NCBI GenBank assembly: GCA_018238155.1
Contig: JABCTZ010000018.1
Location: 30,885-94,884 of the forward strand
Length of the DNA: 64,000 nt
Source: Candidatus Heimdallarchaeota archaeon
GTDB lineage: Archaea > Asgardarchaeota > Heimdallarchaeia > JABLTI01
Reading direction: 5' to 3'
Shown in pieces: positions 40,179 through 44,544 of the stretch. The notes under the pieces are model-generated. The model saw only the letters and a program-made list of their open reading frames with translations. It did not search any database and was not told the DNA's origin. Every line of letters begins with the position of its first letter. Positions within the stretch are counted from its first letter, which is position 1. The translations under genes and the position numbers were made by a program.

Positions 40179-40577
40179 ATGTCAGACAATGATAAGAAAG
40201 AAACTCAACTTACGGATCTCGGAAAAACTCTGTACGATGAAGTTATGGAAGAGATAGATGAAGAAATTAACGACGGATTAGCTAAACATATTACAAAAGA
40301 AAAAATCAAAGCAATAAGTGGGACACTAAAGAAATCCGTGGAAGAGAAAATTGTAAAACTAATTACTGAACATGTTAAAGATGAGATGACAGAAGTAGAA
40401 AAAATGATTCTTGGAGAGAAATTATCTCGAGTTGTTACTAAGAGTGCTAAGAAGGAATTAGGAAGACTACTCTCTGAAATAATCGAGAAAACCTATGAAA
40501 TTTTGTACGAGTTACGAAATGAAATAATTGAAGAAGTATTCGAAGAAACAGATGAAAAGGAAGAAAAAGATGATTAG
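40179..40577 (+). CDS. Acidic all-helical hypothetical protein
   Basis: 132-aa ORF with typical codon usage, E/K-rich; no recognised motif. Confidence 0.65.
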   Translation: MSDNDKKETQLTDLGKTLYDEVMEEIDEEINDGLAKHITKEKIKAISGTLKKSVEEKIVKLITEHVKDEMTEVEKMILGEKLSRVVTKSAKKELGRLLSEIIEKTYEILYELRNEIIEEVFEETDEKEEKDD

Positions 40578-40732
40578 AAAAAACCAACAAATACAGTCAA
40601 GGCTATTTTTTTTTCTCGAATAGTTCTTTATTTTTTATTTTCTCTTTTTTTACTGGAATAGTTTATTACTTTCCATAACATTCGCATAAGTTTTAAGAAG
40701 AGAACCAGTTTAAAACAGTAGAATAAGTTGTT

Positions 40733-42172
40733 GTGCGGTTTAGCCTTTTGAAATTGCGAAATAAATTTGGTTACGGATTTGGTGATATGGGTGTATCCAT
40801 ATCCTATTTTGCTGTTGGTTTCTATTTCATGTATTTTTTAACTGACATTGTTATGATGGATCCATTTCTTGCAGGATTGGCTATTTTCATAGGAAAACTC
40901 TGGGACGGGATGAATGACCCAATAATGGGTATTATCAGTGATCGAACACGATCTCGTTTTGGCAAGAAAAGAGTGTACATTCTATTTGGAGCAATTCCCT
41001 TTGGCATCAGTTTTATTTTGTTATGGTTAATCCCACAATCAGCCGGTCAATGGCTTCAATTTGCATTAGCTATTCTTGCTTTATTGGTATATGCAACTAC
41101 GTACTCGATTTGTGTCGTTCCATATATGTCACTTGTTCCAATAATGTCTGAAGATTATGACGAAAGAACTCAAATAACAGGTATTAGGGCTATTCTTTCT
41201 ACTATTGGAACCATTATTGGTGGAACTGTAGCATTAATCCTTTCCAGTTTTCAGAATGAGTTACTGGGACTTCGCTTAATGGCAATAGGCTTTGGCACTT
41301 TTACAGCTATTTCACTTATTGTAGCTGCATTAAGTACCAGAGGAGTCGAAAGTTTATTTGAAAGTAAATCACTCGGTATTTTTTCTGAAATTACTGATGA
41401 ATACTTAGAGGATGGGAAAGAAAAAACTGATAATGAAGAAAAACAACAGAATCATAGAATAGCTGATTATTCATTAAAACAGTATCTTGTCATTTTGAAA
41501 GAGAAAAACGTGCTCATCCTTTTGGGGATGAAATTCTTTGGTGCTATCGGTACTGGTTGTTTAATAGCTGCTTTGCCTTATTTTGCTGAACATGTTCTTG
41601 GTGATGCAAGTGTAAGCACCATTGGTTTGGCTATCTATATTGCAGTTTCAGCTTTGATGATACCTTTATGGAATTTGTTTTCCAAGAAATTTGATAAAAG
41701 ACGCTTATTGCTTATTGGAATTGTACTAATGGCTGTTGTACTCATTCCTACTGGATTTGCTATTGCTGAAGGTTCAATAATACCATTCTATATTTGCTGT
41801 GGTTTGTTAGGTATCTTCATGTCTTCTTATCTATTAATTCCATATTCGCTCGTACCTGATCTGGTAAACTACTACGAACATAAAACGGGTGAGCGACATG
41901 AATCCATCTTCTTTGGATTTTGGATGACTTTCCATCAACTAGGTTTAGCTGTTTCAGGGCTAATTTTAGGCGGTATTTTAAAGGTATTCAACTATGATGC
42001 AGAACTTACAACACAACCAGAGACAGCAATACTTGGTATTAGACTTTCATTTGGTCTTCTACCCAGCATTTTTCTTATCGTTGCAATTGTAATACTACAA
42101 TTTTATGGCATTTCAAAGTCAGTGTTTCAACAACTAAATTCAAATGAAGAATTTGAAAAAGTAGACTATTAA
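40733..42172 (+). CDS. MFS transporter, GPH/MelB (MFSD2-like) cation symporter family
   Basis: YG.GD.G, WD..NDP.MG..SDRTRSRFG..R, PY.SL....S.DYDERT, G.RHE..FFG; 12 TM. Confidence 0.9.
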   Translation: MRFSLLKLRNKFGYGFGDMGVSISYFAVGFYFMYFLTDIVMMDPFLAGLAIFIGKLWDGMNDPIMGIISDRTRSRFGKKRVYILFGAIPFGISFILLWLIPQSAGQWLQFALAILALLVYATTYSICVVPYMSLVPIMSEDYDERTQITGIRAILSTIGTIIGGTVALILSSFQNELLGLRLMAIGFGTFTAISLIVAALSTRGVESLFESKSLGIFSEITDEYLEDGKEKTDNEEKQQNHRIADYSLKQYLVILKEKNVLILLGMKFFGAIGTGCLIAALPYFAEHVLGDASVSTIGLAIYIAVSALMIPLWNLFSKKFDKRRLLLIGIVLMAVVLIPTGFAIAEGSIIPFYICCGLLGIFMSSYLLIPYSLVPDLVNYYEHKTGERHESIFFGFWMTFHQLGLAVSGLILGGILKVFNYDAELTTQPETAILGIRLSFGLLPSIFLIVAIVILQFYGISKSVFQQLNSNEEFEKVDY

Positions 42173-42182
42173 TAGAAAATGT

Positions 42183-43505
42183 GTGATGCCTAAAATGAAT
42201 ATCATTCAAAAATTGTTCAACATAAGAAAATTACAACAACAATTCTACAAATGGAATCGAGAGAAACTTGAATTACATCAAAAAAAGCAATTAAAGAAGA
42301 TAATTAATTTTTGCAGAAAAAACTCTGAATATTATGCTAATCTTTTTTCCGGTTCAGATGAAATCACACTTGAACAGATACCAATAATGACTAAAAGTGA
42401 AATGATGGATAATTTCGATCTAATCAATACTAGAAATTTGCAGAAAGAAGAATTGGTTGCATACACAGTTGCTCAAGAAAAGAAAGGTATCTATTCAAGA
42501 TTCCAAGGAGAATATTCCATAGGACTTTCATCAGGCACTTCAGGGAATAAAGCTCTCACAGTTCTTTCTCAAAATGAGAGTGAATTGTATAATTGTTTAT
42601 TATTCTCTAGAAATGGTATTCCAAAATCTGTTAAGAAAAGACGAATTCTGTTTGCTCTTCGGAGAAACAATCCTACTTTTAAGGAAATAAGCAATTTTGG
42701 CATTCATTTGATTTATATTGATTATACATTATCAGTTGAAGAAATAATTAGACTCATCAACACCAAAAAATTGAACATCCTTTCAGGTCCTCCATCTTTA
42801 CTGGAAATTATTAGCAGTAAAAAAGATCAAATCGATCATCCCATTGAAGCAGTCATTTCTTACGCAGAGGTTCTATCAAAATCTACTCGAGAAAAATTGG
42901 AAGAGATTTTTGAAGTATCCATCATAGAAATTTATCAAGGAGCAGAGGGGTTCATTGCTTCAACATGTAGATGTGGTAGTTTACACCTAAATGAAGATGT
43001 TTTACTCATAGAAACTTTAGCTGTAGATGACAAAATAGGAAAAGCAAAAAATTTACTTATTACAGATCTTTACAGAACAACTCAACCAATTATTCGTTAT
43101 GAAATGAATGATATCATTGAATTACAAGAAACAAATTGCAAATGTGGTTCTTGTTTTAGAGTTATTGAAAAAATTCATGGACGCTCAGATGACATCTTCC
43201 ATCTAAAGAACAGGAAAGGGGAAATAAGCTATCTCTTTCCAGATTATGTGAGAAGGTCAATAAATCAAGCATCTCAAGAAATAGAAGAATATCAAGCAAT
43301 TCAGAAAGCAATAGATAGAATTGAAATTAGACTCGTTTTAAGAAATGAAGAGAATAGAGAAGATATAGAGAAGAATATCATTGAGAATCTTAATTTTTGG
43401 GCTAATAAATTAAACGCTGAACTGGGAGAAGTCGAATTCTCAAATGATAAACCTGAGAGAAATCCTAGGTCCAAGAAATTAATACGAGTTATTAGAAGGT
43501 TCTAA
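42183..43505 (+). CDS. Adenylate-forming enzyme, F390-synthetase-like/PaaK family
   Basis: P...K..MM.NFD..NT, SSGTSG, IYQ..EG, TDL.RTTQPIIRY..ND, GRSDD. Confidence 0.85.
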   Translation: MMPKMNIIQKLFNIRKLQQQFYKWNREKLELHQKKQLKKIINFCRKNSEYYANLFSGSDEITLEQIPIMTKSEMMDNFDLINTRNLQKEELVAYTVAQEKKGIYSRFQGEYSIGLSSGTSGNKALTVLSQNESELYNCLLFSRNGIPKSVKKRRILFALRRNNPTFKEISNFGIHLIYIDYTLSVEEIIRLINTKKLNILSGPPSLLEIISSKKDQIDHPIEAVISYAEVLSKSTREKLEEIFEVSIIEIYQGAEGFIASTCRCGSLHLNEDVLLIETLAVDDKIGKAKNLLITDLYRTTQPIIRYEMNDIIELQETNCKCGSCFRVIEKIHGRSDDIFHLKNRKGEISYLFPDYVRRSINQASQEIEEYQAIQKAIDRIEIRLVLRNEENREDIEKNIIENLNFWANKLNAELGEVEFSNDKPERNPRSKKLIRVIRRF

Positions 43506-43506
43506 T

Positions 43507-44544
43507 ATGAAATTAATTGAAATAAATAATCTAGAAGATAATAATCTAAACCACTTTTTCAATCTACCACAAGAAATCTACAAAAATGATCCAATATGGT
43601 TTCCGGAGAATCCAGAAGAAATTAAGAAACAATTTACTTTTTCAACAGATAAAAATGAGATAAGAACTTGGCCATTAATCGTAATAAATGAAAACAATGA
43701 ACCTTTAGCTCGAGCAGTGGTAATTCTTCATCCGAAAGCAAAGGACAAGAATGGTAAAAAGATTGGTTGGATAAGCAATATTGAAGTTAAAGAAGGTGAA
43801 TATGATTCTCTAAAAATAATTCTAGATCATTGTGAGAATGTTTTTCGAAACGAAAACGTAAAAGAAATCCTTTTACCAAAACTAGACAATCAATATTTTG
43901 GATTATTGATTAAAGGGTTTGATAAACCACAGACTCTCTTAACAGCACATAACCCAGATTATTATTTCAATTATCTTAAGAAATATGGGTTTAAAGTTCA
44001 TCTAAATATCACTTCTGTAATTTACACTCGAGAGACTTATATTGAGAGGAGATTTGAAGTAGAAGGAGTGAAAATACGTACTTTTGATAGAGCAAATCTT
44101 AAGAAAGAAATTGCCATTTATCATTACATAACAAACGAGGTTTTTGGTAATAGATACAACTACATTCCGAGAACACTGGAAGAAAACACCGCTTATGTAA
44201 AGTCATTCTTACCTTTAATTGATGATGAATTGGTAATTATTGCAGAAACGGATAGTGGTGAACCAATTGGATTTTTGATTTGTGCACCAGATTATTATCA
44301 AAAAATAAGTGAAGGTAAAATAGACAGAGCAAGAATAATATCCATTGGGATACTGCAAAAAAACCATAAAAGGAACATTGCTTCTGCAATGATTAGTTTA
44401 TTGATGAGAAATCTGCTAAAAAAGAATTATCAATATGTAGAAGGTTCCATTATTATGAAGACAAACCTTCCACCGCAATTATTAGCAAAACGATTTGGTG
44501 GTAAACCAGGTAGGGAATTTGTTTTAATGAAGAAGAAACTTTGA
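43507..44544 (+). CDS. Double-GNAT N-acyltransferase, YghO / bacterial ceramide synthase-like family
   Basis: LP..IY.NDP.W.P, GLLI.GFD.P......HNP.YY...L...GF, P.T..E, P.ID..LV.IAE, PD.YQ, R.R....G. Confidence 0.72.
   Translation: MKLIEINNLEDNNLNHFFNLPQEIYKNDPIWFPENPEEIKKQFTFSTDKNEIRTWPLIVINENNEPLARAVVILHPKAKDKNGKKIGWISNIEVKEGEYDSLKIILDHCENVFRNENVKEILLPKLDNQYFGLLIKGFDKPQTLLTAHNPDYYFNYLKKYGFKVHLNITSVIYTRETYIERRFEVEGVKIRTFDRANLKKEIAIYHYITNEVFGNRYNYIPRTLEENTAYVKSFLPLIDDELVIIAETDSGEPIGFLICAPDYYQKISEGKIDRARIISIGILQKNHKRNIASAMISLLMRNLLKKNYQYVEGSIIMKTNLPPQLLAKRFGGKPGREFVLMKKKL

Follow-up and report, generated by a model that had tools for sequence, protein, structure and literature searches.

Three co-oriented genes packed end to end in the genome of a Heimdallarchaeota archaeon raise the question of what their products do together. 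They lie in a 64,000-nucleotide stretch of DNA (the whole stretch analysed, referred to here as the window; G000:C44:30885-94884, with loci, genomes, contigs and proteins cited throughout by our own handles) of a 4.08-Mb Heimdallarchaeota metagenome-assembled genome (MAG). The genes encode a permease of the GPH family in the major facilitator superfamily (MFS; ORF1), an adenylate-forming ligase (ORF2) and a tandem-GNAT acyltransferase (ORF3). The original prediction, made from the letters of the window, took them for an import, activate and N-acylate module that salvages ceramide-like lipids and bears on the origin of eukaryotic sphingolipids. We found that the three genes recur as a unit in at least six phyla, in bacteria as well as archaea, and that the acyltransferase belongs to a clade of its own, sister to the proteins that resemble bacterial ceramide synthase (bCerS) and Escherichia coli YghO. 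The best-supported reading, held with moderate confidence, is a mobile cassette that would take up a compound and form an amide-linked product from it.

Conservation of the three-gene cassette

We examined 17 loci that carry a GNAT gene of the same clade as ORF3, of which 15 have enough upstream DNA to show the MFS gene. The archaeal loci come from a second Heimdall MAG, a congener and an Asgard genome of the same class. Those from bacteria represent Dehalogenimonas (2), Dehalococcoidaceae, Anaerolineales (3), Peptococcaceae, Limnochordia, Spirochaetota (2) and a deltaproteobacterium, and the set also includes metagenome contigs. The ligase gene stands directly 5' of the GNAT gene in all 17 loci (48-90% identity), and the MFS gene 5' of the ligase gene in all 15 where it could be seen (49-90% identity). 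Gene order and tight spacing are identical over at least six phyla and two domains, and the flanks are unrelated: when the flanking ORFs were clustered all-against-all, nothing else was recurrent except an integrase (three loci) and shadow ORFs. Since the same order recurs across several phyla and both domains with unrelated flanks, the arrangement is far from chance, and the co-conservation on which the original prediction depended is borne out.

Among the 150 best clade-profile representatives no fusion of the GNAT with the ligase or the MFS protein was found, and neither partner gene stands beside the non-clade YghO-like genes at the loci examined. The 17 cassette loci hold no homologues of serine palmitoyltransferase (Spt) or CerR, no linkage to any lipid gene, and no co-conserved glycosidase or sugar kinase. 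In the second Heimdall MAG (L001:9038-10345), a fourth, overlapping gene 3' of the GNAT gene encodes an MFS_3/DHA3-type transporter; the window and most loci lack this extra gene. A Dehalococcoidia locus (L046:7920-8615) has just a clade GNAT gene cut down to its C-terminal 204 residues, with neither the MFS nor the ligase gene; this is probably what is left of a decayed cassette.

Cassette hosts are mostly anaerobic bacteria and comprise Chloroflexota, Bacillota, Spirochaetota, Deltaproteobacteria, Thermoplasmata and a few Heimdallarchaeia. An orthologue of the clade is present in 3 of the 400 Asgard genomes sampled and in 2 of the 11 genomes of the window's own genus, and the GC content of the cassette is that of the genome. 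For these reasons the cassette is an old but accessory module that is laterally exchanged. The deep members of the clade include Kariarchaeaceae and Thermoplasmata; the archaeal members form poorly supported deep branches of the GNAT tree, which does not resolve the direction of transfer between bacteria and archaea.

Phylogenetic position of the acyltransferase

Scans of ORF3 against Pfam and NCBIfam, neither of which has a YghO model, returned a weak C-terminal GNAT match in the former and no match in the latter, and a sequence search of the PDB gave nothing useful. With yghO of E. coli K-12 taken from its annotated record as the reference, homology to YghO was found over the full length of ORF3 (BLASTP, residues 9-345, 20% identity, E 7e-22). 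An hhalign comparison of a 40-member ORF3 family profile with YghO reached a probability of 99.8% (E 1e-27, 333 columns). AF2 models ORF3 as a tandem GNAT (pLDDT 93.8), and the structures that Foldseek ranks highest against this model are tandem GNATs with TM scores of 0.65-0.70: 7q3a (MAB_4324, 0.70), 5kf1 (a glucosamine N-acetyltransferase, 0.70) and MshD (0.65). The family motifs by which the original prediction had recognised ORF3 are present as EIYKNDPIWFP (residues 23-33), GLLIKGFDKP (132-141) and HNPDYY (148-153), and they are conserved across its family.

A clade-profile search of 1.84 billion representatives yielded 5124 relatives, among which a gap in score separates a group of about 330-355 amino acids (at least 253 bits with the clade HMM) from a group of about 375 amino acids (at most 208 bits; E. 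coli YghO, 133 bits). The short clade, which includes ORF3, stands on the opposite side of a long branch from YghO, the Spt fusion protein P0101 and all other proteins of about 375 amino acids. This split has a support of 100 in FastTree (107 rows) and an SH-aLRT of 99 in IQ-TREE with LG+C20 (57 rows). The tree has no outgroup, and sister group is the strongest statement that it allows. Therefore, while the bCerS/YghO-like character given to ORF3 in the original prediction stands as far as tandem-GNAT architecture and full-length homology are concerned, its placement within the bCerS clade does not: the protein falls in a separate, well-supported sister clade, an outcome that the original prediction itself had listed as counting against it.

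The two groups also differ in insertions. Members of the short clade are about 30-40 residues shorter than the YghO-like proteins and are missing both an 8-residue linker insert and a hydrophobic or amphipathic segment of about 15-20 residues in the C-terminal GNAT domain (YghO 283-297, NGS..FGWAKLLWR). The latter is occupied in at least 70% of the 58 YghO-like rows versus at most 20% of the 49 clade rows; it is a feature seen in this alignment and not an established bCerS criterion. Fourteen residues are conserved in both the clade GNATs and the 58 YghO-like proteins. As bCerS is a peripheral membrane protein (PMC11087976), one might speculate that the segment missing from the clade GNATs is a membrane-binding element of bCerS.

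Sphingolipid genes linked to YghO-like proteins

In E. coli K-12, IS5 abuts the start of yghO (L003:14044-16341). In the non-K-12 strain 2011C_3361 (L009:1-10103), yghO lies beside genes for a fatty acyl-AMP ligase (FAAL), an epimerase-family reductase, an acyl carrier protein (ACP) and Spt (601 bits on the Spt model, cut-off 500), together with paralogues of lptF and lptG. A sphingolipid-type cluster thus appears to have been lost from K-12. PMC11324152 describes a Caulobacter gene set of aasR, cerR, acpR, spt and cerS (bCerS) with lptF2/G2, and N-acylation of sphinganine and 3-oxo-sphinganine by bCerS. Because the E. coli cluster mirrors this gene set, we infer that YghO is the positional equivalent of Caulobacter bCerS.

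Gene fusions point in the same direction. P0101 (L034:7001-9343) is a 780-aa fusion of Spt with a YghO-like protein, in which the Aminotran_1_2 part is 44% identical to E. coli Spt; its gene overlaps a CerR-like gene and is followed by a PAP2 gene. P0184 (589 aa) joins a PAP2_3 domain to a YghO-like protein. The group of about 375 amino acids is therefore truly linked to sphingolipids, at least in part, and the tie between YghO-like proteins and sphingolipid genes that the original prediction presupposed is sound for this group.

Other relatives outside the clade have different settings. P0082 (784 aa) is a tandem double YghO-like protein. Two Asgard genomes, G310 (L028:8102-9256) and G284 (L029:1557-2723), encode YghO-like proteins of about 385 amino acids that score 110-128 bits to E. 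coli YghO and are nearer to it than the cassette GNAT is; they are without MFS or ligase partners, and one of the genes adjoins an MBL-fold hydrolase gene near an alpha/beta hydrolase gene. The closest non-clade relative (Omnitrophota, L032:4067-8140, 208 bits) overlaps a class-III aminotransferase gene and lies 3' of a fusion of Polyketide_cyc and Shikimate_DH, putatively a different context in which an amine is made and then acylated.

Alpha-oxoamine synthases in cassette hosts

The genome that contains the window has one alpha-oxoamine synthase gene (G000:C19:44843-46024; L010:5838-7073, minus strand), on another contig than the cassette. Its best NCBIfam model is the Bacteroidota-type Spt at 493 bits, below the cut-off of 640, with Kbl/BioF-type models at 405 bits or less. 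Similar synthases (450-520 bits) are found in 9 of 10 congeners, whether or not these have the cassette, and in many further Heimdallarchaeia that are without it. A link of this gene to the cassette was therefore rejected, and the CerR-like matches in the same genome were set aside as generic epimerases of 21-27% identity. No alpha-oxoamine synthase was found in the cassette-positive genomes of Dehalogenimonas TCA1 and Peptococcaceae BRH_c8a; with two such hosts, the cassette is independent of de novo synthesis of long-chain bases. The original prediction took the lack of Spt in the window to fit salvage, but hosts free of Spt fit salvage and a role outside sphingolipids equally well.

Permease and ligase families

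ORF1 matches the MFS_2 model PF13347 over its full length (E 1.9e-81) and passes the TIGR00792 gph model narrowly (235 bits, cut-off 231), while it fails the MelB equivalog model (160 bits, cut-off 456). Its best PDB sequence matches by phmmer are MFSD2A, with 122 bits in a single alignment of residues 8-462, followed by MelB with 95 bits. With a BLASTP score of 117 bits and 24% identity to E. coli MelB, ORF1 may on sequence be placed about equidistant from MelB and MFSD2A. The cation site of MelB (D55/N58/D59) is found as D58/N61/D62 in ORF1 and is retained in 13 of 16 orthologues. At MelB positions 19 and 124, where MelB and the E. coli permeases UidB, YihO and YihP carry Asp or Asn, ORF1 has Ser and Val, and all 16 cassette permeases have Ser and Val, Ser, Thr or Ala. 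Position 377, Lys in those same four carriers, is Gln in every cassette permease (Q402 of ORF1). MFSD2A shares this Lys (K436), which is required for its transport of lysophosphatidylcholine (LPC). Conserved residues specific to the cassette permeases are K267, Y25, Y302, Y366, Y371, W397 and H401. Asp18 in TM1 was at first counted among these residues and seemed to point to an amine substrate; the idea was dropped, as the same Asp of a GxGD motif is present in UidB, YihO and YihP. Together the permease residues argue for cation-coupled import of a compound that would not be a sugar. The MelB/MFSD2-like label of the original prediction thus remains correct at the level of the GPH family and in the loss of the sugar-binding residues of MelB; the sequence scores do not clearly set ORF1 nearer to MFSD2A than to MelB.

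ORF2 scores 308.8 bits on TIGR02304 (cut-off 251.9), so that the families named for the first two genes in the original prediction are both supported by their profiles. Its solved relatives in a PDB sequence search are PaaK-type ligases (about 51 bits, E about 1e-12), and by profiles and PDB matches alike it is PaaK-like, not FadD- or FAAL-like. All 16 orthologues compared carry the motifs SSGTSG, YQxxEGF and TD..R..RY..D and the C-terminal Lys432 without change. The same genome has a second TIGR02304 ligase, 37% identical to ORF2 (G000:C41:199271-200563; L008:8236-9582). It is encoded by the last gene of a complete archaeal operon for CoA biosynthesis (pantoate kinase, phosphopantothenate synthetase, PanB, PanE, a PLP decarboxylase and CoaBC), overlaps coaBC by 4 nt, and is followed by a gene for a DAGK_cat/YegS-type lipid kinase.

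Gene organization in the window

All three ORFs were found on the plus strand exactly at the positions given in the original prediction, separated by gaps of 10 nt (ORF1 to ORF2) and 1 nt (ORF2 to ORF3) (Table 1). In ORF2, an ATG follows one codon after the start. The nearest plus-strand ORF on the 5' side ends at 40577, and the 3' neighbour is a convergent gene for a protein with LVIVD repeats.

Table 1. Features of the cassette and its upstream region, in window coordinates
Feature	Position	Strand	Length	Start codon	Remarks
Presumed promoter region (putative)	40578..40732	+	155 nt		AT-rich intergenic spacer 5' of the cassette, read from sequence
ORF1, GPH-family (MFS_2) cation-coupled permease	40733..42172	+	479 aa	GTG	
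ORF2, TIGR02304 'F390 synthetase-related' adenylate-forming enzyme	42183..43505	+	440 aa	GTG	PaaK-like, ANL superfamily
ORF3, tandem-GNAT acyltransferase	43507..44544	+	345 aa	ATG	Sister clade of YghO/bCerS-like proteins

Proposed function of the cassette

The best-supported reading is that the three genes form one operon and one self-contained, horizontally mobile functional unit for uptake, activation and N-acylation, and as a single joint claim we consider this reasonably probable. A compound would enter through the GPH permease by Na+/H+ symport. With ATP, the TIGR02304 enzyme would turn a carboxylic acid into an acyl-adenylate and probably then into a CoA thioester, from which the tandem GNAT would transfer the acyl group to an amine, giving an amide-linked product inside the cell. 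One substrate would be imported and the second would be a common cellular metabolite, as no other gene is co-conserved. The acid may be unusual or exogenous, since the cassette carries its own ligase, and the imported substrate is probably not a sugar, judging from the permease residues. The sequence data show gene order, co-conservation, families, fold and motifs; the direction of transport, the CoA thioester, the N-acylation and the class of substrate are inferred from these.

Several observations weigh against this proposal. MFSD2B, a relative in the GPH family, is an exporter, so import by the cassette permease is not certain. PaaK-like enzymes such as NatL2/AjiA1, which are among the PDB matches of ORF2, can hand an acyl-adenylate straight on to a nucleophile, bypassing CoA. 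ORF3 itself has KRNIAS where the consensus of its clade is a CoA-pyrophosphate loop of the KGxG type. The nearest structural matches of ORF3 use small hydrophilic amines (glucosamine, a mycothiol precursor), and the Fem transferases, tandem GNATs that depend on aminoacyl-tRNA, also match it, more weakly, in Foldseek.

Alternatives to a joint uptake and acylation function differ in how well they account for the loci. Adjacency by chance, or shared transcription of genes with unrelated functions, could appeal to the lone truncated GNAT of L046, yet it is contradicted by the synteny of the 17 loci and is highly improbable. The cassette might instead convert endogenous substrates into an N-acyl metabolite, be it a signal, an osmolyte or an N-acyl amino acid, with the MFS protein as its exporter. 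This would suit the second MFS gene directly 3' in the Heimdall variant L001, and some GPH relatives, such as MFSD2B, do export lipids; but the cation-symport site of the permease is conserved, its gene comes first and is, along with that of the ligase, the most tightly conserved partner, and the additional exporter is missing from the window and most loci. We regard such a biosynthetic role as quite unlikely.

The other two alternatives retain uptake and differ in what is acylated. A glycoside or amino sugar could be taken up and then N- or O-acylated, loosely as in lacY-lacA or in the N-acylation of chitosan oligomers, with the ligase providing an acyl donor other than acetyl. GPH carriers typically move glycosides, ORF1 passes the TIGR00792 cut-off and shares the GxGD Asp (D18) with UidB, YihO and YihP, and the glucosamine N-acetyltransferases 5kf1 and 4zm6 are among the top structural matches of ORF3. 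Against this stand the replacement of the polar MelB 19/124 pair and of K377 in 16 of 16 cassette permeases, and the lack of a co-conserved glycosidase or sugar kinase, and we consider sugar acylation unlikely. Salvage of a sphingoid base or a similar long-chain amine, in which MFSD2-like import and a fatty acyl thioester made by the ligase would feed N-acylation by a bCerS-like GNAT, appears doubtful. It can draw on the nearest relatives of the GNAT outside its clade, which include the Spt fusion beside a CerR-like gene, the PAP2_3 fusion and E. coli YghO in its cluster of spt, ACP, reductase, FAAL and lptFG genes, and on the action of bCerS on sphinganine and 3-oxo-sphinganine (PMC11324152). 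A lysolipid symporter ranks first among the PDB sequence matches to the permease, which has lost the sugar-binding residues, and the two hosts without an alpha-oxoamine synthase fit salvage over synthesis. However, a long branch with a support of 99-100 parts the clade from the YghO/Spt-fusion group, and the FGWAKLLWR-type insert of that group is missing. In addition, the permease is no nearer to MFSD2A than to MelB and carries Gln in place of the Lys that those two share, the ligase is PaaK-like and not FadD- or FAAL-like, and the cassette is without linkage to lipid genes.

Implications

The preferred reading of uptake, activation and N-acylation preserves the logic of the original prediction, which fits the co-conserved families, but the Asgard and eukaryotic side of that prediction fails, given how few Asgard genomes have the cassette and that its carriers are mostly anaerobic bacteria. 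As the cassette is exchanged among anaerobic bacteria and a small number of archaea and is rare and patchy in Asgard, it says little on the origin of eukaryotic sphingolipids, and its relevance to eukaryogenesis is weak. Enzymes of the bCerS type are, moreover, unrelated to eukaryotic CerS. The widespread Spt-like alpha-oxoamine synthase of Heimdallarchaeia is more directly relevant to that origin. Eukaryotic sphingolipid metabolism has been associated with Asgard ancestry (PMC12872458), and the synthase may bear on this affinity; a literature search combining Asgard with serine palmitoyltransferase returned nothing relevant.

An unlikely extension of the salvage idea concerns anaerobes that have no cell wall or are poor in fatty acids, some Heimdallarchaeia and Thermoplasmata among them: the cassette would let them scavenge sphingoid bases or other long-chain amines and join these with scavenged acids into ceramide-like amide lipids. 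If salvage were true, ceramide-synthase-type activity would be known from archaea for the first time, and the bCerS superfamily would gain a new branch equipped with a dedicated importer and ligase. In any case, three families travel together in anoxic sediments and subsurface settings, spanning both prokaryotic domains and six or more phyla. Were their function solved, a role would be assigned to each of these so far uncharacterised families (the GPH subfamily, the TIGR02304 subfamily and the sister clade of bCerS), and it would become clear how such organisms modify a scavenged compound. No paper describing the cassette was found in literature searches for YghO and for F390 synthetase with MFS and acyltransferase. 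New findings are the link of E. coli YghO to an spt cluster, the fusions with Spt and with PAP2, the separation of the clade with its indels, the permease residues, the distribution in Asgard and the Spt-free hosts.

Comparison with known systems

Among characterised enzymes, bCerS (Caulobacter CC_1154/CCNA_01212) and E. coli YghO resemble ORF3 in full-length homology to YghO, tandem-GNAT architecture, the 14 shared residues and, presumably, transfer of an acyl group from a thioester to an amine. The clade of ORF3 is nevertheless separate and shorter, without the linker and hydrophobic inserts, and its genes are never found beside spt, cerR or ACP genes; they always lie 3' of a PaaK-like ligase gene, which the MFS gene precedes. 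MFSD2A, a Na+-dependent LPC symporter, and MelB, a melibiose permease, share with ORF1 the GPH family and the cation-binding pair of Asp residues. Like MFSD2A, ORF1 is without the D19/D124 sugar ligands of MelB; in contrast to both, with which it has about 24% identity, it carries the invariant Gln in place of their Lys and a conserved residue set of its own. ORF2 has the adenylating core of the ANL superfamily, the SSGTSG loop and the C-terminal catalytic Lys in common with PaaK, coenzyme F390 synthetase and TIGR02304 proteins, its similarity to PaaK being weak. Other F390-like genes, according to the original prediction, more usually neighbour those for FabH-like, epimerase and MBL proteins. 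The closest functional analogy is the LplT-Aas system for lysophospholipid uptake and re-acylation in E. coli, in which an MFS importer, an adenylate-forming activator and an acyltransferase are likewise encoded together, and by which an imported amphiphile is repaired or re-acylated. The two systems are not homologous: LplT is an MFS_1-type protein and Aas a PlsC-type O-acyltransferase fused to a FadD-like acyl-ACP synthetase, whereas the cassette combines a GPH permease, a PaaK-like ligase and a putative N-acyltransferase of GNAT fold.

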